A model generated the notes under the pieces. That model was given only the letters and a program-made list of their open reading frames with translations, had not been told where the DNA came from and did no database searches. Made by a program: the position numbers and the translations under genes. From positions 3,150,001-3,182,000 of the forward strand of contig NC_009483.1 of the NCBI RefSeq assembly GCF_000016745.1: a stretch of 32,000 nt of DNA, given 5' to 3'. The stretch comes from Geotalea uraniireducens Rf4 (GTDB taxonomy: Bacteria; Desulfobacterota; Desulfuromonadia; Geobacterales; Geobacteraceae). Below, piece after piece: positions 4,774-25,450 of the stretch (within the stretch, counting starts at the first letter, position 1; each line of letters begins with the position of its first letter).

Positions 4774-5438
4774 GTAAACATACGATGATCTATCTTCAGC
4801 CCACCCCGGTGCGCATCTGGCACTGGCTCAACGCCCTGGGCATCGTCACCCTCTGCATAACCGGCGCGCAGATCCGCTTCCCGGAATACCTGGCAATTTT
4901 CGGCAGCTACAAGACGGCCATCCTCCTCCACAACACGGCGGGGATCGTCGTGGCCGTCTCCTTCTCCCTCTGGTTCTTTTACTACAAGATGATCGCCGGC
5001 ACCCTGCTCAAGCTGTATGTCCCCAACCAGGAGGAGTTGCAGCACGGTCTCCTCAGGCAGGCAATCTTCTACTTCTTCAGGTACTTCCGCGGCGACCCGA
5101 GCCCGCACCACGCGACGCCGGACAACAAGTTCAATCCCATGCAGAAGTCGGCCTATCTCGCCATCATGTTCGTCCTTATGCCGCTCGTGAGCCTGACCGG
5201 CATCCTGCTGATGAACGTCACGCCCCTGCGGGAACTGGTGCTCCTGAGCGGCGGCCTGAAGATTCTCGTATCGGGGCACTTCCTCCTGGCGAGCTCGCTC
5301 TGCGCCTTTCTCTTTACCCACGTCTACCTGGCGACGCTGGGGCACTCCCCGATGGCGCACATCAAGCCCATGTGGACCGGGTGGGAAGAGGCGGAAGAGC
5401 ATGGAGAAGTAAAACAGACGGAACAGGGGAATAACTGA
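4770..5438 (+). CDS. Membrane b-type cytochrome (Ni/Fe-hydrogenase / FdnI / PhsC-type cytochrome b family; CbcB-like)
   Basis: ATGA overlap with the cytochrome c gene. Four or five hydrophobic helices carry conserved His at IWHW, LLHN, SGHF and THVY, as expected for a dihaem b. Confidence 0.85.
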   Translation: MSKHTMIYLQPTPVRIWHWLNALGIVTLCITGAQIRFPEYLAIFGSYKTAILLHNTAGIVVAVSFSLWFFYYKMIAGTLLKLYVPNQEELQHGLLRQAIFYFFRYFRGDPSPHHATPDNKFNPMQKSAYLAIMFVLMPLVSLTGILLMNVTPLRELVLLSGGLKILVSGHFLLASSLCAFLFTHVYLATLGHSPMAHIKPMWTGWEEAEEHGEVKQTEQGNN

Positions 5439-5476
5439 CGCACTGCGCCTGAACCCGAAAGGAAAGGAGGCCCATC

Positions 5477-5992
5477 ATGCTCGGACATATGATCGGACAA
5501 ACGAAACGGCTGGAAGATAACCATCCCCGCAAAGCATTCACCGCCGCGGCACAAGACGATATGCGCCGGCTTCAATCCCTTTCCCGCCGGGGCCTCTGGG
5601 CGATGGCGCTCTTCCTCCTGATCAGCGCCCTGGCGCTCTGCCTGCGGGACATCAACCTGCTCGTCCCCCTTCCCGAAGGTATACGGCAGATACTCGGCGC
5701 CCCGCCCCCCCCGATCCTGGTGCACATCGCCCTGGCCGTCTCCACGGTCTCCGCCCTGGTCCTCATCCTGGGTAGGGCAGTGGGAAGCGCCAGGCCTTGC
5801 CACAGCTGGATCAACATCGGGCTGCCGACGGTTTTTTACCCGCTCTATCTGGTTACCGAACCGCTGGATGTAAACTTCCTGGTCGTTCTGGTCGTCGGGC
5901 TCTCCATTATCACGCTTGAGCATCTCACCGTCTGGAGATATTCATCCAGGGCGATTGCGGAGGAGAGGGACCGGCTGGGGAGACGGTTGTAG
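5477..5992 (+). CDS. Integral membrane protein, unknown function (last gene of the cluster)
   Basis: RBS aaaggagg about 7 nt upstream of the ATG. Several hydrophobic helices. No recognisable motif. Confidence 0.55.
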   Translation: MLGHMIGQTKRLEDNHPRKAFTAAAQDDMRRLQSLSRRGLWAMALFLLISALALCLRDINLLVPLPEGIRQILGAPPPPILVHIALAVSTVSALVLILGRAVGSARPCHSWINIGLPTVFYPLYLVTEPLDVNFLVVLVVGLSIITLEHLTVWRYSSRAIAEERDRLGRRL

Positions 5993-6036
5993 GTGTTGAG
6001 ATCGGCCGGACGATGTGAATACGGAAAAACACACCC

Positions 6037-6100
6037 GTAGGGGCGGGGTCACCCCGCCCCTACACCCCGCCCCTACACCCCGCACACCCCGCCCCTACAC
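6037..6100. repeat. GTAG-type REP: perfect palindrome GTAGGGGCGGGGT-C-ACCCCGCCCCTAC followed by tandem ACCCCGCCCCTAC units
   Basis: Read directly. The palindrome spans 6037-6063. Further full or partial ACCCCGC(CC)CTAC copies run to about 6100. Confidence 0.8.
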
Positions 6101-6156
6101 GGTTCATCCCCCCAGAGCATCCCCATCTCAAGAAAAGCATCCTTGACACCCCAAAT

Positions 6157-6177
6157 GGTATGACACATCATCATACC
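6157..6177. promoter_or_regulatory. Candidate operator (inverted repeat GGTATGA-N7-TCATACC) with an upstream TTGACA (6143-6148) in front of the mazEF-like pair
   Basis: Inverted repeat read directly. RHH antitoxins usually autoregulate at such sites. The -10 element is not convincing. Confidence 0.35.
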
Positions 6178-6196
6178 AATGAAAGCGAGGTGCCCA

Positions 6197-6439
6197 ATGG
6201 CAAAAGCAAAGCTTGCCGTAACGCTCGACGAAAAAACGCTCTCCGAGGTTGATAGCCTGGTCAAAAGACGCGTGTTTCCCAACCGCAGCCGTCTCATCGA
6301 GGAAGCGGTCCGCGAGAAGGTTTCCCGGTTGAACCGCGATCGTCTGGCCCGCGAATGCGCCCTGCTCGACCCGGACTTCGAAAAGTCCATGGCCGAAGAA
6401 GGAATGGGAGAGGAGCTGAACGAATGGCCCGAATACTGA
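6197..6439 (+). CDS. Ribbon-helix-helix (CopG/MazE-type) antitoxin
   Basis: [22 protein letters not shown]...[11 protein letters not shown] is a typical RHH N-terminus. The ATG at 6197 has GAGGTG upstream, so it is preferred over the ORF-track start at 6179. It overlaps the toxin gene by 16 nt. Confidence 0.75.
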
Positions 6440-6759
6440 GAGGGGACATCCGCTGGGCCGATCTCAACCCTGTGCGTGGCAGCGAGCAAGGGAGACTGCG
6501 ACCTGTCCTCATCCTGAGTCACGATGTCTTCAACGCCCGCTCCGGTACAGTCATCGCCGTAGCGATAACCAGCCAGCCGCCGCGCGCCGGCTTCCCCCTC
6601 ACCCTCGAACTTTCCTCCCCAATACTTCCCAAGCAGTCCTGGGTCAAGATCAGCCAGATCCGGACGTTATCTGTCGAACGCATCGGTAAGAAGATCGCCG
6701 AGGCAAGTCCCGAAGAGTTGAACCATGTGATCGATGGGTTGAGCGAGATCGTGGGATAA
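6424..6759 (+). CDS. mazF: MazF/PemK-family endoribonuclease toxin
   Basis: [32 protein letters not shown]...VIAVAITSQ...[16 protein letters not shown] is a classic PemK/MazF fold signature. The internal ATG at 6424 is chosen instead of the ORF-track start at 6355. Confidence 0.88.
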
Positions 6760-6864
6760 TTCGGGGGGGAGGATGGGGATGGTCATGGCGGTTGCACCTG
6801 AAGAAGAAAGAGATACCACGAACACTGCGTTTCTGTTATAGTTTTGCCATCAAAGGAGATGACC

Positions 6865-7116
6865 ATGAAAAGCGCGTCAGTCACCGTCAAACTGCCGGAA
6901 CCGGTCAAAACACGTCTGGACCGTCTCGCCAAGGCCACACATCGGAGCAGGTCGTCTCTCGTTTCGGCCGCTGTCGAAGAGATGCTCTCCGTGGAAGAGT
7001 GGCAGATTCAGGGAATCAGGGAAGCTTTGCATGAGGCCGATTCCGGCAACCTGATTGCCCACGAAGAGATCAAACTTGAATGGGAGACACGGCGTGCACG
7101 TCAAGTGGACAAGTAA
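6865..7116 (+). CDS. RHH antitoxin (ParD/CopG-like)
   Basis: SVTVKLPEPVKTRLDRLAKATHRSRSSLVSAAVEEML is an RHH motif. AAGGAG at 6853-6858 favours the ATG at 6865; 6859 is also possible. Confidence 0.75.
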   Translation: MKSASVTVKLPEPVKTRLDRLAKATHRSRSSLVSAAVEEMLSVEEWQIQGIREALHEADSGNLIAHEEIKLEWETRRARQVDK

Positions 7117-7378
7117 GGCACGTCGTGACTTGTACAGCGTCGATGGTTACATTTCACAGGACAACCCCACCGCTGCTGCAGAAACGGTTCTGAAAATCAT
7201 TGCCGCCGTAGAATCGCTCTCCCAGCACGCGGAAATGGGGCGGCCCGGCAGAGTCCCCGACACTCGGGAACTGGTCATTCCCGGTCTCCCCTTTATAGTC
7301 CCCTATCGCATCAGCAGTTCCACAATCGTCATCCTTCGTGTCTACCACACATCCCGCAAGTGGCCAGATCAGCTTTAA
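7094..7378 (+). CDS. RelE/ParE-family toxin
   Basis: WTSKARRDL...I..DNP.AA...GRPGRVPDTRELVIPGLPFIVPYRI...IVILRVYHTSRKWP is a ParE/RelE signature. A GTG at 7094 overlapping the antitoxin 3' end is the plausible start. Confidence 0.8.
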   Translation: MHVKWTSKARRDLYSVDGYISQDNPTAAAETVLKIIAAVESLSQHAEMGRPGRVPDTRELVIPGLPFIVPYRISSSTIVILRVYHTSRKWPDQL

Positions 7379-7446
7379 CCCCGAGATCTCGACAAACACT
7401 GGCTTTGCCGATTTCTTAGCCCTCTTTGAAAAAGGGGGGTGAAACC

Positions 7447-7475
7447 TGGGGAATCCCCACGCATGTGGGGAACAC
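7447..7475 (-). repeat. Solitary type I-E CRISPR repeat with a degenerate 3' end
   Basis: The minus strand reads GTGTTCCCCACATGCGTGGGGATTCCCCA. The first 21 nt fit the I-E consensus GTGTTCCCCRC-N4-GYGGGGAT with the CCCCAC/GTGGGG stem. The usual GAACCG tail is replaced. Confidence 0.65.
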
Positions 7476-7767
7476 GCGCCCCGCCCGGCTGACCGGAGGC
7501 GTAAAGCCGCACCCCGGCCTCACCGATCCAGACGAGGAGGCACCCCACCCGGCTGGCCAGCACCACCGCATTGTGGGAGACCCGCGTCCCCGGCTCCAGC
7601 ATGAGGCAGGCAACGCCGCCGACGGGGACATGGGTGCGGACCCCGGTCTTGTCCACCACAACGAATGCGCCGTCGAGCACATCAAGGTTCCCCTTCTCAA
7701 CGAAGAGGACCGAGAGGCGGTCTTTGATGGGGATCGGTTTCAATGGGGGAAGAATGGGTTCGGTCAT
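7476..7767 (-). pseudogene. cas1: Type I-E cas1, N-terminal ~98 codons only
   Basis: MTEPILPPLKPIPIKDRLSVLFVEKGNLDVLDGAFVVVDKTGVRTHVPVGGVACLMLEPGTRVSHNAVVLASRVGCLLVWIGEAGVRLYASGQPGGAR is co-linear with E. coli Cas1 (YgbT) residues 1 to about 95, as recalled. Similarity stops at GGAR and the ORF then reads through the repeat. Confidence 0.85.
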
Positions 7768-7798
7768 GGGGCGCTCCTTAAAATCGGAAAATATAAAC

Positions 7799-8013
7799 GT
7801 AGGGGCGGGGTCTCCCCGCCCGGATTCTGATTCTCCGGGGTCTCCCCGCCCGGATTCTGATTCTCCGGCAAAAGCGGGCGGGGAAACCCCGCCCCTACGT
7901 CATCATTGGCAAACAGGGGGCGGGGTGATGACCCCGCTCGTAGGGGCAATCTCCGTGTGGTTGCCCCGATTCTGGTGTTATAACGGCGGGCACCCACACG
8001 GGGGTGCCCCTAC
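7799..8013. repeat. Cluster of GTAG-type REP hairpins (BIME-like) downstream of the RAYT gene
   Basis: Multiple units were read directly, including:
- GTAGGGGCGGGGTCTCCCCGCCC.
- A 2x tandem GGATTCTGATTCTCCGGGGTCTCCCCGCCC.
- GGGCGGGGAAACCCCGCCCCTAC.
- GGGCACCC-ACAC-GGGGTGCCCCTAC.
Segment 7799-7925 is a paralogue of 8219-8360. Confidence 0.8.
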
Positions 8014-8708
8014 GTTGGATATTCATCGTCTTCTGTCCATTTCGATGGATTGAAATGGATGTATTCCCGGATGCCGGCCAATTCCGCTTCGTCGCGGATG
8101 ACGCGCTCGAAATAATTGCGTTGCCAGACCGGCACGCCCGGATTGTCGCGCATGAAGTTGATCTGCTTCGTCGTCTGGTATTTGAAAAAACCAACAATCT
8201 GCCCAAGCGTCGGTTTCCGTAGGGGCGGGGTCCTCCCGCCCTGATTCTCCGGGGTCCTCCCGCCCAGGTTCTCCGGGGTCCTCCCGCCCAGGTTCTCCGT
8301 GGTCTCCCCGCCCAGGTTCTGATTTTCCGGCGAAAGCGGGCGGGGAAACCCCGCCCCTACGTCATCATTGGCAAACACAGGGCGGGATGACCCCGCCCCA
8401 ACATCGTCATTGGCAAAAACAGGGCGGGGGAACCCCGCCCCTACGATGCAAATGATGCCTTGGAAATGGTTGGGCATGACGAAGTATTCATCCAATGCCA
8501 CATTCGGAAATTTCCCCGGCAATTTTACCCACCATTCCGCCACCATCCGCCCCGCATCGTTCAGGCGCATTTCACCATCCAGAATATCGCCGAACAAACA
8601 TTCCCGCCCCTGCGCGCATATCGTGACGAAATACGCGCCGTTCGAGGAATAATCGTATTCCCGCAGACGGATGGAACGACGGTGGTGAATGTCAGGGTTA
8701 TAGGTCAT
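8010..8708 (-). CDS. RAYT-like / IS200-type Y1 (HUH) transposase with an in-frame REP-derived insert
   Basis: The N-terminus YNPDIHHRRSIRLREYDYSSNGAYFVTICAQGRECLFG and C-terminus WQRNYFERVIRDEAELAGIREYIHFNP are typical of COG1943/Y1_Tnp proteins. The HUH position reads MPNHFQG. The centre (8219-8444) consists of REP-like repeats translated as VGAGFPRPVFANDD and ENLGGRTP units. Confidence 0.8.
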   Translation of the reverse strand: MTYNPDIHHRRSIRLREYDYSSNGAYFVTICAQGRECLFGDILDGEMRLNDAGRMVAEWWVKLPGKFPNVALDEYFVMPNHFQGIICIVGAGFPRPVFANDDVGAGSSRPVFANDDVGAGFPRPLSPENQNLGGETTENLGGRTPENLGGRTPENQGGRTPPLRKPTLGQIVGFFKYQTTKQINFMRDNPGVPVWQRNYFERVIRDEAELAGIREYIHFNPSKWTEDDEYPT

Positions 8709-8718
8709 AAAATCACCG

Positions 8719-8746
8719 TAGGGGCGGCCCCATGTGGCCGCCCTCG
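8719..8746 (+). repeat. GTAG-REP hairpin immediately upstream of the RAYT start, in inverted orientation relative to the downstream REP
   Basis: GTAGGGGCGGCC-CCATGT-GGCCGCCC read directly. It abuts the last, degenerate CRISPR repeat. Confidence 0.6.
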
Positions 8747-8984
8747 TTTCGCGTAGCAGGCGGGCGCTTCAATACGGGAAGATCGCCGAGGCCATGCGCA
8801 CCATGTTTCAATCCTCGCCCGCCATTGAAGGCGGGCGCTTCTCGTCCAGTTTACGTTCGTAGTCATGGTAGCCGAGGTTTCAATCCTCACCCGCCATTGA
8901 AGGCGGGCGCTTCCAGTAACCTGTTGCGCATCATGCTGTCTCCTTTCGTTTCAATCCTCACCCGCCATTGAAGGCGGGCGCTTC
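8746..8984 (-). CRISPR. Mini CRISPR array: 3 full repeats plus 1 degenerate terminal repeat, 3 spacers (type I-C/I-B-like repeat ending ATTGAAAC)
   Basis: 37-nt repeats lie at 8948-8984, 8877-8913 and 8805-8841. The minus strand reads GAAGCGCCCGCCTTCAATGGCGGG(T/C)GAGGATTGAAAC. Spacers are 34, 35 and 34 nt. The degenerate copy is at 8746-8770. A leader of about 170 nt (8985-9158) adjoins cas2. Confidence 0.85.
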
Positions 8985-9158
8985 TGTCCCCATTTATTGG
9001 CGACAGATTACAGCAACTTACATCCCCGATTCTGCGAACCAGGGAATTTGGGGCCTGAGCAAGGCCAGAGGCTCATCACTCTCCTGAAAAATAGTTTAAA
9101 ATCAACGAAATATCTATCCGCGAACCGCCCATGTTTTTGCCAGTGCATCAGGTTCGCG

Positions 9159-9449
9159 TCAGACAATCAACGGCTCCTCGAAAAATATCGTGCGACTCAA
9201 ACCGTAGGTCTCCACATGATCATCCCTAGGTTCAGTAAGGCGGTAAAGCCGCAGATTATCCTCTTCTTTGACGATTTCTCTCAGAAGTTTCCGGCGCAGT
9301 TCCTCAAACTTCATCTCATTCACCTGGCACTCGAACACCGACTTCTGCACCCGTTGGCCGTAGTTCTTGCATACCTGTGCCACCCTGCGCAAACGTTTCC
9401 GCCCTTTTGGTGTTTCAGTGTTCACGTCATAACAGACGACTATCCACAT
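9159..9449 (-). CDS. cas2: CRISPR-associated endoribonuclease Cas2
   Basis: [43 protein letters not shown]...LRLY is the canonical Cas2 ferredoxin-fold signature. It lies next to the leader and array. Confidence 0.9.
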
Positions 9450-9472
9450 GGTTACCCCCGATCAATCTGAAG

Positions 9473-9584
9473 AAATCCCCCTGAATCCCCCTTTCTCAAA
9501 GGGGGACTTTTTCTGTGCCCACCATTCCCAAAGGGGGACATTTTTATTCCCCCCTTTACGAAAGGGGGGTCAGGGGGGATTTCT
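9473..9584. repeat. Left copy of the ~110-bp direct repeat flanking the DUF559 gene (G/C hairpin element)
   Basis: Contains AAATCCCCCTGAATCCCCCTTTCTCAAAGGGGGAC...CCCCCCTTTACGAAAGGGGGGTCAGGGGGGATTT. By eye it is about 90% identical to 9957-10082, apart from one ~15-nt indel. Confidence 0.8.
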
Positions 9585-9941
9585 GAGCCCTTCTTGAATT
9601 GCATCAATAATCCGCTGTATCACAGCATCCGTATCACGCAATATCTGATAATTGTCGAACCTCAGAACTCTTAACTCTTCTCCGACGAGAAACCTGTCCC
9701 GCTCCTCGTCTCTCCTTGCATTTTCCGGTTCCCGATGTTGACTGCCATCAGCTTCAACCACCAATCCAGCACCGGGAGCAAAGAAGTCCACGATATAGGG
9801 TCCAATCGGCTTTTGACGATAAAACTGCACACCAAGCAACTGTTTTCCTCGTAGATGTGACCATAATCGTTGCTCAGCCTCAGTCATATTTTTTCGAAGT
9901 TCACGGGAGGCATCCTTCAGTACTCGACCATATTCTCGCAT
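9570..9941 (-). CDS. DUF559 endonuclease-domain protein (Vsr-like fold)
   Basis: LRKNMTEAEQRLWSHLRGKQLLGVQFYRQKPIGPYIVDFFAPGAGLVVEADGSQH...RDRFL...G..VLRF is a DUF559 signature. The ATG at 9941 is preferred. The longer ORF to 10013 starts inside the flanking repeat (PPLRKGDLGGF). The stop lies inside the left repeat. Confidence 0.85.
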   Translation of the reverse strand: MREYGRVLKDASRELRKNMTEAEQRLWSHLRGKQLLGVQFYRQKPIGPYIVDFFAPGAGLVVEADGSQHREPENARRDEERDRFLVGEELRVLRFDNYQILRDTDAVIQRIIDAIQEGLRNPP

Positions 9942-9956
9942 GAACGGACCTCTTTC

Positions 9957-10082
9957 AAATCCCCCTAAATCCCCCTTTCTCAAAGGGGGACTTATTCTGT
10001 TCCCACCACTCAAAGGGGAACTTTTTATGTTTCAGGGATTATTTTTATCCCCCCTTTACGAAAGGGGGGTCAGGGGGGATTT
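9957..10082. repeat. Right copy of the direct repeat flanking the DUF559 gene; contains the cas4 stop codon
   Basis: AAATCCCCCTAAATCCCCCTTTCTCAAAGGGGGAC...CCCCCCTTTACGAAAGGGGGGTCAGGGGGGATTT. The cas4 stop is at 10070-10072. Confidence 0.8.
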
Positions 10083-10696
10083 AACACAAACAAGTCACGG
10101 GCTGCCTTCCGGCTCCTCCCCTTCTCCCCCACAACATGCGGCAGGCAAGACTCTTTCAGAGAACAATCCTTGCAACGCTTGTCGTTCACCGGCGGCGGAA
10201 GATGACAATTCGCGATCATCTCATGAGTGGCGGCGACGACCTCCTCCAGATGCGCCCGCATGGCATCGGTAAATACAATCTCTTTCCGCTCCCGCGAACC
10301 ATGCCAGTAGAGTGCCCCTTTCTCCACATTTATGTTGAGCATCTCTTCCAGGCAGACCGCCTGGGCCAGGAGCTGCAACGCCTCATGATGTCCGGCGCGA
10401 TGACGGCCCGACTTGTACTCCACCGGATAGGGAACGTCACCGTGGAACTCCACCAGATCGGCCTTGCCGACCAGCTTCAACCGGCAGCACCAGATGGGCA
10501 AGGCACGTTCATAGCGCACTCCAGCAATCTCGTGGGAGGATTCCGCGTCAACATTCTCATGTACGTCGCGGCCGCGCATGGTGTAGAGGTTCTCGTGAAA
10601 GGTCTGCTCCACATGGATCAGGGCGCACTGGCGCGGGCAGTAGCTGTAATGCTCCAGGGCGGAGATCATGATGGGGTCGGAGGGTTCAGGTATCAT
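10070..10696 (-). CDS. cas4: CRISPR-associated exonuclease Cas4 (RecB-like nuclease with 4-Cys cluster)
   Basis: N-terminal YCPRQC with C-terminal CKDCSLKESC gives the 4-Cys Fe-S motif. RecB-type motif GKADLVEF...YPVEYKSG. About 208 aa, which is full-length size. The last codons (LNPP-stop) derive from the flanking repeat. Confidence 0.88.
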   Translation of the reverse strand: MIPEPSDPIMISALEHYSYCPRQCALIHVEQTFHENLYTMRGRDVHENVDAESSHEIAGVRYERALPIWCCRLKLVGKADLVEFHGDVPYPVEYKSGRHRAGHHEALQLLAQAVCLEEMLNINVEKGALYWHGSRERKEIVFTDAMRAHLEEVVAATHEMIANCHLPPPVNDKRCKDCSLKESCLPHVVGEKGRSRKAARDLFVLNPP

Positions 10697-10789
10697 CGAA
10701 ACAAAACTCCTTTGGGTTGAACTATTGCAAATTTTGCAACAGCTGAGTGCGGTTCAAATCCCTTCCTGCAACTACCAAATTGCGCAGAC

Positions 10790-11140
10790 GGTATCTGCGT
10801 AATTGGCCAAGTCAGGTAAAACAAACGCATCTGTTCGACATTGCGTTTGGAAAACCCGCGTCCAAACCGGCTGGTCAAGTCATGGGCCAGCCGTTCAATA
10901 TCTTTTCTCCATATGCTGCACGTTCGCGGCCACCCTGTTCGCTCTCGACTATCCGGCGTCCAATTTCCCAATAAGTGGCAGTCATGATGGAGTTCACCGC
11001 CCGCGAGGAGGCCCGGCGGGCCTCCTCCAAAAGGCTTACGACACCTGAGAGCATGGCTTCGTAGTCGGTTACGGGCGGGTGATGTGCGGATTTCTTTTTC
11101 TGCTGGTCATGAGAAGCTCCGGTGGCTAATTTCTTTAGTA
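10790..11140 (-). pseudogene. DUF1016 (YhcG-type PD-(D/E)xK nuclease) N-terminal fragment, frameshifted and truncated
   Basis: My own translation gives two pieces. One frame reads DYEAMLSGVVSLLEEARRASSRAVNSIMTATYWEIGRRIVESEQGGRERAAYGEKI. The next frame continues ERLAHDLTSRFGRGFSKRNVEQMRLFYLTWP. Together they match the DUF1016 N-terminal domain pattern. No nuclease half is present. Confidence 0.6.
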
Positions 11141-11204
11141 ACCGTCAATAATCTCCGGCCTGAGCCCACGCACTTCTTGCCGCACCCTGGATTTTGGTTG
11201 CTCG

Positions 11205-11724
11205 TAGGGGCGACACTGCCGTTGAAAGCCAATCACTGTCCGTCAGCGAACTAAACAAAGATTTCCCGCTGAAATCCATTATTAAAGGATACAGGTTCCT
11301 GTGAATTGATATCTGACTCAACAAAACCGACATCATCAATAAATTTTTGCACGACATCCTTGAAATCAGGAACGTCATCGTGAATGTAAGGGTTTGTGTC
11401 GCTCTTCCATGCTGCTTTGTCTGGCATTCCCTTATGGTGGCCGTCAATTGCAATTGATGCTTCATGTATTTTGAATTTACTCGCATATCCGGCTCCCCAC
11501 GAAGCATGAGGCACACTGCCACGACGTCCGCCGTTTTCAAGATAGTTCTGAAATGCCTGTTGGTACTTGCCGAGGTCATGCAATAGACCCGTCATTTTGA
11601 AAATGGGTTTGTATTCCCGACGACAGGCAAATGATTCCACAAGATTAGCGGTTTCATGCAGATGCTTTGCTAGAAGGTGCTTATCTTTGTTATCGTTTTC
11701 CGAATGGGCATAATAATCCGTCAT
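11205..11724 (-). pseudogene. cas3: cas3 remnant: HD nuclease domain only, frameshifted, helicase part deleted
   Basis: YAHS...KHLLAKHLHETANLV...GLLHDLGKYQQAFQNYL...IAIDGHHKG are HD-domain motifs. The next HD motif, SLFSSLTDSDWLST (11220-11261), is in a different frame. Similarity ends at a GTAGGGGCG REP fragment (11204-11220). No Walker A or DEAH motif follows. Confidence 0.75.
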
Positions 11725-25320: not shown

Positions 25321-25450
25321 CCCCCAGTGTTTCCTTTCCCCCCAGTGTTTCCCCCCAGTGTTTCCCCCCAGTGTTTCCCCCCAGTGTTTCCCCCCAGTGT
25401 TTCCCCCCAGTGTTTCCCCCCAGTGTTTCCCCGACCCCCAGTGTTTCCCT
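25321..25450. repeat. Intergenic tandem array of 9 CAGTGTTTCC cores; the central seven cores are spaced exactly 13 nt apart (unit AGTGTTTCCCCCC)
   Basis: The core A residues are at 25326, 25344, 25357, 25370, 25383, 25396, 25409, 25422 and 25440. The array is flanked by direct repeats GTCAATGTGGAGATGCGACACTAT (25249-25272) and GTCAAAATGTAGACGCGACACTAA (25453-25476). Confidence 0.9.

Follow-up and report, generated by a model that had tools for sequence, protein, structure and literature searches.

The cas1 fragment and its surroundings

The window, i.e., the whole 32,000-nt stretch of Geotalea uraniireducens Rf4 DNA analysed here, contains the 5′ end of a type I-E cas1 gene that runs directly into a solitary type I-E CRISPR repeat. 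Read in the cas direction, the order is a REP-associated tyrosine transposase (RAYT) gene, REP units, cas1 (codons 1–98) fused to the repeat (bases 1–23), a hairpin element, RelE and RelB in the opposite orientation, a second cas1 start (codons 1–9) and MazF. The features are listed here by window position.

6197–6759, plus strand: MazE (6197–6439) and MazF (6424–6759), the conserved distal flank of the I-E locus
6761–6788, minus strand: second cas1e 5′ stub (MTIPILPP...), a start codon plus ~9 codons, resembling the cas1 start in genomes G052 (L118) and G079 (L117)
6865–7378, plus strand: toxin-antitoxin cassette of RelB (6865–7116) and RelE/ParE (7094–7378), from NCBIfam RelB-like and RelE_StbE and Pfam ParE_toxin and RHH
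7379–7452, unstranded: RelE 3′ flank, ~41 unique nt and then a G/C hairpin element (CCCTCTTTGAAAAAGGGGGG...TGGGGAAT) abutting the cut repeat
7375–7474, minus strand: read-through tail of the 130-aa ORF, from the third base of codon 98 to codon 130 plus the stop
7453–7475, minus strand: type I-E CRISPR repeat, bases 1–23 (GTGTTCCCCACATGCGTGGGGAT), matching array repeats of G001, L130 and many genomes
7475–7767, minus strand: cas1e 5′ fragment, nt 1–293 (codons 1–98), from TIGR03638, PDB 3NKD and 94.6% nt identity to the intact cas1 of G001
7768–8009, unstranded: cluster of REP-like repeats separating RAYT from the cas1 fragment and taking in the cas1 5′ UTR
8010–8708, minus strand: RAYT gene, from an NF047646 match, tblastn, protein sequence and synteny
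8716–8984, minus strand: REP and degenerate terminal repeat (8716–8771) with three 37-nt repeats (8805–8841, 8877–8913 and 8948–8984), the array of a Cas4-containing type I (I-C/I-G-like) system
9159–11724, minus strand: remnants of this second CRISPR type, from NCBIfam matches, including the four features below
9159–9449, minus strand: cas2 of the second type (NCBIfam)
9470–10080, minus strand: DUF559 insertion with hairpin flanks
10070–10696, minus strand: cas4 of the second type (NCBIfam)
11251–11724, minus strand: cas3 HD fragment of the second type (NCBIfam)

An ORF check of the window confirms a 130-aa ORF on the minus strand (7767–7375). An NCBIfam profile search aligns its residues 10–99 with positions 2–92 of the 269 in TIGR03638 (Cas1e; E-value 6.6e-31), and E. 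coli Cas1 structures, e.g., 3NKD residues 5–96, align with residues 8–99 (E-value 5e-44). The sequence-only reading, an earlier model-made note, had called this ORF Cas1, and for the N-terminal part the profile search agrees. The score of 107.5 bits falls below the cut-off of 215.6 bits for full-length Cas1e because the N-terminal third alone remains, and a Pfam search of the ORF, Cas_Cas1 included, gave no match. Homology to Cas1e stops at residue 98–99, leaving the N-terminal β-sandwich domain only; the catalytic C-terminal domain, which in E. coli numbering holds the catalytic residues E141, H208 and D221, is gone. The remainder of the ORF is a translation of the repeat and the RelE 3′ flank, has no homology and ends in a stop codon that overlaps the RelE stop. 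An AAGGAG ribosome-binding site precedes the cas1 fragment in its 5′ UTR.

Homology to the cas1 gene ends at nt 293, within Arg codon 98, where the junction reads ...GGCGGGGCGCG / TGTTCCCCACATGCGTGGGGAT / TCCCCAGG. A single G (window 7475) is common to cas1 nt 293 and repeat base 1. The sequence that follows (window 7475–7453) has the type I-E features of a 5′ GTGTTCCCC, a 6-bp stem (CCCCAC/GTGGGG) and a 4-nt loop, and it is oriented relative to cas1 as in intact I-E loci. As an exact 23-mer, it is the array repeat in dozens of genomes, many of them unrelated (82 stretches, many with 20–100 copies). It also matches the array repeat of the congener G001 (GTGTTCCCCACAGGCGTGGGGATGAACCG) at 22 of 23 positions, with one loop base different, and that of L130 at 22 of 23. 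The earlier suspicion of a fusion to a real I-E repeat was therefore right, and this is no chance palindrome.

The 3′ end had been taken as degenerate, as terminal array repeats often are, but the repeat is instead cut at base 23. The 3′ handle GAACCG (...ATGAACCG), which would complete the 29 nt, is absent: the bases after GAT are TCCCCA, matching the handle at 2 of 6 positions. No repeat-spacer series with a 61-nt period accompanies the repeat, which is the sole copy in the window. At its cut end it meets the hairpin element of the RelE 3′ flank, forming a second junction, and the same hairpin element lies 3′ of the RelE stop codon in G074 and G079. The hairpin-end motif has ~40 matches dispersed in the genome, and a BLAST of the 68-nt flank within the genome finds it to be unique, the window's hairpin copy being too diverged for a BLAST match. 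We also considered a resemblance between the repeat's 3′ flank and the sequence after the array of congener G002 (GGATT..CCCCAG), and rejected it as not significant (35 of 300 shuffles reach its score).

The RelBE cassette is convergent with the cas1 fragment. It has relatives (80–83% nt identity over 6829–7377) in G079 and G052, where the cassette is immediately upstream of an intact I-E cas1 and divergently transcribed, and in G024, where it lies between cas4 and a type I-C cas1. The second cas1e stub abuts the MazF stop codon and is 42 nt from the RelB promoter motif; the same sequence block and spacing occur in G052 (L118) and G079 (L117). By our own count, 6 of 24 bases differ between the two cas1 starts in the window, and their 5′ UTRs are unrelated, so they are no recent duplication.

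On the other side of the cas1 fragment is the RAYT gene, whose reading frame includes REP units and which has HFQ where a HUH motif would be expected. In G001, G002, L130 and L131, too, a RAYT gene stands between cas6e and cas1. Beyond it, the 54-nt block of REP plus terminal repeat is 98% identical in contig C58 of G001. The cas3 HD fragment, cas4, cas2 and 37-nt-repeat array bear out the suggestion that a second CRISPR type is decaying alongside the first.

A tblastn of all G002 I-E proteins and all ORFs of the G001 locus against the window finds the cas1 fragment and the RAYT gene only. None of the type I-E effector genes (cas3, cse1, cse2, cas7, cas5, cas6e) is present in the window, nor were an I-E cas2, a leader or another I-E repeat found there, in agreement with the sequence-only reading. 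Elsewhere in the genome, a single contig of 5.14 Mb, a separate I-E locus lies at ~983–997 kb. A genome-wide search for the window repeat, suggested earlier as a way to reveal another I-E array, did reveal one (995,047–996,844), but its repeat is distinct (CTGTTCCCCGCACGAGCGGGGATGAACCG, 30 copies), and the other near matches are isolated ones at unrelated sites.

Intact and rearranged relatives

In two congeners, G002 and G001, the syntenic site is home to an intact I-E locus, whose neighbours are the RAYT, MazEF and cytochrome genes also seen in the window. G002 contig C35 runs cas3, cse1, cas7, cas5, cas6e, REP, RAYT, a GNAT-type gene pair, cas1, cas2 and a 77-repeat array, after which come one 37-nt repeat remnant, a toxin-antitoxin pair, MazEF and cytochrome genes. 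It is collinear with the window on both sides, and its MazEF pair, downstream of the array, has 77% nt identity to that of the window. In G001 the order is cas3 to cas6e, RAYT, a DnaQ-like exonuclease gene, cas1, cas2 and the array, which is spread across more than one contig. Alignment with intact relatives, as the first reading had advised, maps the deletion from cas1 nt 293 to repeat base 1 with one shared base. In both G001 and L130, cas1 nt 294 and the first repeat are 992 nt apart, which sets the minimum size of the deletion. A metagenome scan for a closer undeleted relative gave only cas1 genes of ~80% identity, none closer than G001.

The window fragment has 94.6% nt identity to the intact G001 cas1 and 83% nt (88% aa) identity to the genome's other cas1, at the ~983–997 kb locus. 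It is therefore no copy of that gene, and we rejected recent duplication of the genome's own intact cas1 as its source.

The cas1::repeat joint is old and real, because it is found in independent assemblies and in three metagenomic haplotypes. An identical 130-aa ORF is present in L124 (100% nt identity) and L125 (98.5%), the latter found via exact protein identity and therefore a biased sample. A 98% variant with the same joint, P0002, is present in four metagenome contigs with three different left-hand contexts. An assembly artefact is ruled out by the single-contig genome and by the recurrence of the joint in separate assemblies.

To the left of the REP-RAYT block, the P0002-type contigs differ. 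L131 has a complete cas3-cse1-cse2-cas7-cas5-cas6e operon directly upstream of the block. L130 has an intact cas1-cas2-leader and 55-repeat array upstream, followed by RAYT and the truncated cas1; the last repeat of this array breaks off at base 18, where a spacer and repeat of the 37-nt type are attached. The window has the remnants of the Cas4-containing type I system at the same place. Because these left-hand contexts differ among L130, L131 and the window, the REP-RAYT block behaves as a recombination boundary, and the cas1::repeat joint predates the left-hand rearrangements.

A probable relic of a type I-E locus

We consider it very likely (roughly 85%) that the fused cas1 fragment and repeat are a non-functional relic, left by deletion, of a type I-E CRISPR-Cas locus that once stood at this chromosomal site. 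The deletion, of at least 992 bp, took out cas2, the leader and the last two thirds of cas1, along with any repeats before the retained one, and joined cas1 nt 293 to repeat base 1 across the one shared base. The retained repeat is itself cut, ending at base 23 against the 3′ hairpin flank of the RelBE cassette, and this cassette carries a stub, ~9 codons long, of a further cas1. Upstream of RAYT, this genome has lost the I-E effector genes, and the Cas4-containing type I remnants now lie there instead.

The sequence-only reading had offered a single deletion to the last repeat of the array. A deletion in place is supported by the intact syntenic loci of G002 and G001, but one event does not suffice: the 3′ end of the repeat is a separate junction, the RelBE cassette brings a second cas1 stub, and L130 and L131 have the joint beside an intact cas1-cas2-array or a full effector operon. 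Because of these three observations, the locus is best read as a layered graveyard that took at least three events or junctions to form.

The fragment is presumably a pseudogene that cannot integrate spacers, because the catalytic domain, cas2, leader, array and effector genes are missing, and immunity in this genome probably rests on the separate I-E locus at ~983–997 kb. Compared with the E. coli K-12 I-E adaptation module (cas1e, cas2, leader, array), residues 1–98 are collinear and the 5′ end of an I-E repeat is present, whereas the catalytic domain, cas2, leader, 3′ handle and repeat series are absent, and with them any expected integrase capacity.

Could the fragment nevertheless be functional, with the Cas1 N-terminal part acting as a modulator of intact Cas1, or the repeat acting as a crRNA-like regulator of RelBE? 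Against the non-functional reading, the ORF is intact, has a good ribosome-binding site, ends close to the Cas1 N-terminal domain boundary and is retained in several haplotypes; regulatory standalone repeats for cas or toxin genes are also known (bioRxiv 10.1101/2023.03.03.530964). We nonetheless judge such a function to be highly improbable. The repeat has neither its 3′ handle nor a partner repeat, the window contains no cognate effector genes, and the neighbouring RelE is itself deleted in relatives. The sequence downstream of the repeat has no match of at least 10 nt to the RelB promoter or nearby targets; within 5000–10500, the only matches of that length are other hairpin elements.

Divergence among the haplotypes might seem to indicate constraint, with 10 synonymous codon changes and 1 non-synonymous change in the Cas1 part (codons 1–98). 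However, nt 1–188 of the window fragment are identical to the intact upstream cas1 of L130 (5 differences in 294 nt), and the fragment has 12 differences from L130's own truncated copy. We therefore attribute the synonymous excess to exchange with intact genes, not to constraint on the fragment, and reject selection as its cause. Three amino-acid differences separate the ORF from that of P0002, and two of these are in the tail, which has thus changed twice at the protein level.

In CreTA-like standalone units, a spacer with a partial match to a PAM-adjacent promoter is usually flanked by two repeat-like units, and a cognate effector is needed (Shmakov et al. 2023 preprint, bioRxiv 10.1101/2023.03.03.530964). 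The window resembles these mini-arrays in having a solitary repeat-like unit beside a toxin-antitoxin pair in a CRISPR-cas neighbourhood. It differs in having one cut repeat, no target match and no nearby effector: in place of a second repeat-like unit and an intact 5′ handle, there is a single unit cut at base 23.

As a relic, the single locus is an instance of ordinary CRISPR-Cas decay in a defence island, which is of a known kind. Like other decayed or orphan CRISPR-Cas loci, it has lost its cas genes and array piecemeal in an island rich in toxin-antitoxin genes and mobile repeats, while a working system is retained elsewhere in the genome. Unlike them, its end point is base-exact at a repeat border, and this type of joint recurs in other lineages.

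Toxin-antitoxin genes may help to explain what was left behind. A toxin-antitoxin pair is directly upstream of cas1 in nearly every I-E locus that we examined, intact or decayed, and the pairs are diverse: RelBE, VapBC, an HI1420-type antitoxin gene, DUF433/DUF5615, UPF0175/DUF3368, MazF/RHH, a GNAT-type pair and a Fic pair. Such a cassette also directly precedes cas1 in at least one I-C locus, and the cassettes survive the decay. We infer that the pairs resist deletion and so preserve the adjacent 5′ end of cas1, which would explain both cas1 stubs in the window. The placement of toxin-antitoxin pairs therefore bears on which pieces of a defence locus persist.

Recurrent joints at repeat borders

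To look for similar joints, we screened the best 120 short homologues of the ORF for tails unlike Cas1 and also screened Cas1e fragments in 401 and 239 genomes (phylum and order, respectively), checking the DNA of each case. Three further, independent cas1e truncations are joined exactly at repeat base 1. They are listed here with their break points.

P0007: break at codon 110, 0 shared bases, then one complete solitary repeat
P0081: break at codon 116, 1 shared base, then three repeats
G028: break at codon 78, 1 shared base, then two degenerate repeats

In a fifth case, P0053, the break is near codon 178 and is followed by G, a 32-nt spacer and a repeat, which puts the joint at the repeat/spacer border. 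The independent cas1e truncations that end in an array number seven, with 4/7 at repeat base 1 and 1/7 at the repeat/spacer border. Other truncations are not at a clear border: in P0108 a solitary repeat is preceded by ~110 nt of other DNA and a leader-like stretch, P0089 is ambiguous (its repeat begins after 61 nt), G129 is truncated at residue 208 and has no repeat, and P0006 has an insertion of a repeated element at codon 99 with no repeat involved. Candidates were discarded if they were contig ends (G567, G171, G236) or frameshifts (P0103, G190), and P0099 was left out of the truncation set.

Ordinary illegitimate recombination could have placed these end points at borders by chance, with the apparent recurrence being an artefact of which cases were noticed. 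The microhomology is just 0–1 nt, which is common in random deletions. The cases are few and were gathered once the first example was known, and some truncations (P0108, P0089, G129, P0006) have no clear border. On the other hand, if chance is ~2/61 per event, then four or more of seven at repeat base 1 has a probability of ~4e-5 (our own binomial arithmetic, post hoc and on a small sample), and a fifth is at the other border. Breaks inside a spacer would usually be noticed too, the ORF in most such cases still running on into the repeat, and none with offsets of 1–31 nt was seen. We therefore regard chance as an unlikely account of the recurrence.

The two borders of a repeat are the sites attacked by the Cas1-Cas2 integrase during spacer integration. 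The recurrence of joints at integrase cut sites suggests adaptation-linked self-deletion. Under this scheme, a break would first arise at a repeat border, where Cas1-Cas2 cuts during spacer insertion; the break would then widen backwards through loss of DNA from cas2 and cas1 before end joining closed it. Two Ku homologues encoded in the genome make such end joining plausible. Of the routes considered, this is the likeliest origin of the base-exact joint, although we put it at somewhat less than even odds, the mechanistic step resting on 7 to 9 junctions in a set gathered post hoc. The first reading had also raised an aberrant integrase event at a repeat; base-exact joints recurring elsewhere lend that idea some support as a possible origin.

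Published work describes break-linked hot spots of spacer acquisition at and just upstream of CRISPR arrays (PMC10011333, PMC5737086). The likeness between breaks at Cas1-Cas2 integration intermediates and our cases is that joints recur at both of the attacked borders. However, these papers describe hot spots of spacer uptake, not deletions of cas1 and cas2, and the link between the two is one that we infer.

An alternative route to a base-exact joint is homologous recombination between cas1 and a self-spacer derived from it. A spacer ends at the first base of the next repeat, so a crossover would fuse cas1 exactly to that repeat, as in the four lineages, and self-spacer uptake is reported to have a hot spot just upstream of arrays (PMC10011333, PMC5737086). 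The crossover would also remove the self-targeting guide. Several observations make this route rather unlikely in our view. At the PAM position, 33–35 nt upstream of the four joints, the bases are GCG, GCG, CAG and GCT, with the canonical AAG in none, though this test is weak because non-AAG self-spacers are expected to be the tolerated ones. A joint between a DUF1016 gene and a repeat in L139 has no AAG at the PAM position either. The available arrays of L130, G001, G002 and the genome's own locus have no cas1-matching spacer, and the P0053 joint, at a 5′ spacer border with non-cas1 sequence between, is not predicted by such a crossover.

Returning to breaks at repeat borders, we tentatively propose, with more doubt than confidence, that these joints form a scar class that recurs in I-E loci and is made by the adaptation machinery. 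A staggered cut or stalled integration intermediate at a repeat would become a break, the leader, cas2 and part of cas1 would be lost from it backwards, and the remaining ends would join at 0–1 nt of homology. The resulting joints would be at repeat base 1 or, more rarely, at the repeat/spacer border, and the toxin-antitoxin pair would limit the loss and preserve the cas1 stub. We found no description of base-exact cas1::repeat scars as a class in the literature searched. Loss of CRISPR-Cas by deletion is reportedly discussed in connection with self-targeting by Stern in 2010 and Vercoe in 2013, both of which PMC8047081 cites.

For this genome, the finding means that a cas1 pseudogene and a solitary repeat are due for annotation. 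Beyond this genome, the joint matters as the first in a small set of base-exact cas1::repeat joints that arose independently. If the proposal is true, then I-E systems would have a built-in route to destroy their own spacer-acquisition genes, and a spike of end points at the two integrase cut sites, if borne out across a systematic set of genomes, would be genomic evidence of a self-inflicted cost of acquisition, paid as loss of cas1 and cas2. It would also give a simple sequence signature with which to score that cost across genomes, and it would help to account for adaptation modules disappearing more readily than arrays or effectors do.

RelBE cassettes and CRISPR adaptation modules

The RelBE family represented in the window is linked to CRISPR adaptation modules. 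Its members share 73-86% nucleotide identity across genomes, and only two of the eight contexts found have no CRISPR relation. The cassette lies directly upstream of an intact type I-E cas1 in G079 and G052, sits between cas4 and a type I-C cas1 in G024, adjoins an array of 37-nt repeats in G018, and in G066 is ~1 kb away from a I-E array. The window itself carries two relevant features:

6829-7377: RelBE cassette, with relatives compared at L117 (G079), L118 (G052), L119, L121 and L123
6761-6788, minus strand: second cas1e 5' stub, consisting of the start codon and about nine codons (MTIPILPP)

This second stub has the MazF stop on one side and the RelB promoter on the other. The spacing from stub to promoter is 42 nt, as it also is in G079 and G052, whose loci are intact.

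In the metagenomic haplotypes that carry the same cas1e-repeat joint as the window (L130-L133), RelE has lost 123 nt from its interior (window 7153-7276 for comparison), a REP cluster shortens MazF to 45 aa (compared with window about 6424-6629), and RelB is intact. The toxins therefore decay and the antitoxin stays.

Solitary and cut repeats

A complete I-E repeat can also stand alone within a gene:

L139 3448-3476: solitary I-E repeat, variant ...GATAAACCG, within a DUF1016 gene; also in L140 and L142

In L139 it substitutes for about 42 nt of the gene, and both edges are exact. The next repeat lies 1.2 kb away. The two repeats enclose, as if it were a giant spacer, a segment that holds the 3' part of DUF1016, VapBC and cas1 codons 1-116.

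Final repeats are cut where older DNA begins in three arrays: at base 18 in haplotype L130 (5112-5129), at base 16 in L143 (about 1902-1917) and at base 23 in the window (7453). All of these cuts fall within or just past the 3' arm of the stem. These repeats are thus cut rather than simply drifted.

Genes around cas1

The RAYT gene (window 8010-8708; also L125, L130 and L131) has REP units translated in frame. HFQ replaces the HUH motif in the window copy; the copy in L125, another assembly with the same 130-aa ORF, retains HFH and lacks its C-terminal half. A RAYT gene separates cas6e from cas1 in the congeners G001 and G002; in L131 one occupies the same place, with the cas1 stub instead of a whole cas1. 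Elsewhere, window 25335-25432 holds 7.5 perfect tandem copies of the 13-nt unit TTTCCCCCCAGTG.

Two further loci have additional genes beside cas1:

L023 7620-8187 (G001): DnaQ-like 3'-5' exonuclease gene, immediately upstream of cas1e and overlapping it
G000:C1:982,000-998,000 (L026): separate I-E locus of the source genome, in the order cas3, cse1, cas6e, cas7, cas5

The DnaQ-like gene had no match in an NCBIfam search; it is similar to the trimmer exonucleases that are associated with I-E adaptation. In L026, a RAYT paralogue lies upstream of cas3. There cas5 is separated from cas1 by a MazF/RHH pair together with a four-helix-bundle gene, and cas1 from cas2 by an inserted IS4-family transposase gene.

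Probable end joining in the source organism

Two adjacent Ku homologues (G000:C1:4,061,750-4,063,285) both exceed the family cut-off score. Geotalea uraniireducens Rf4 is therefore probably capable of bacterial end joining.
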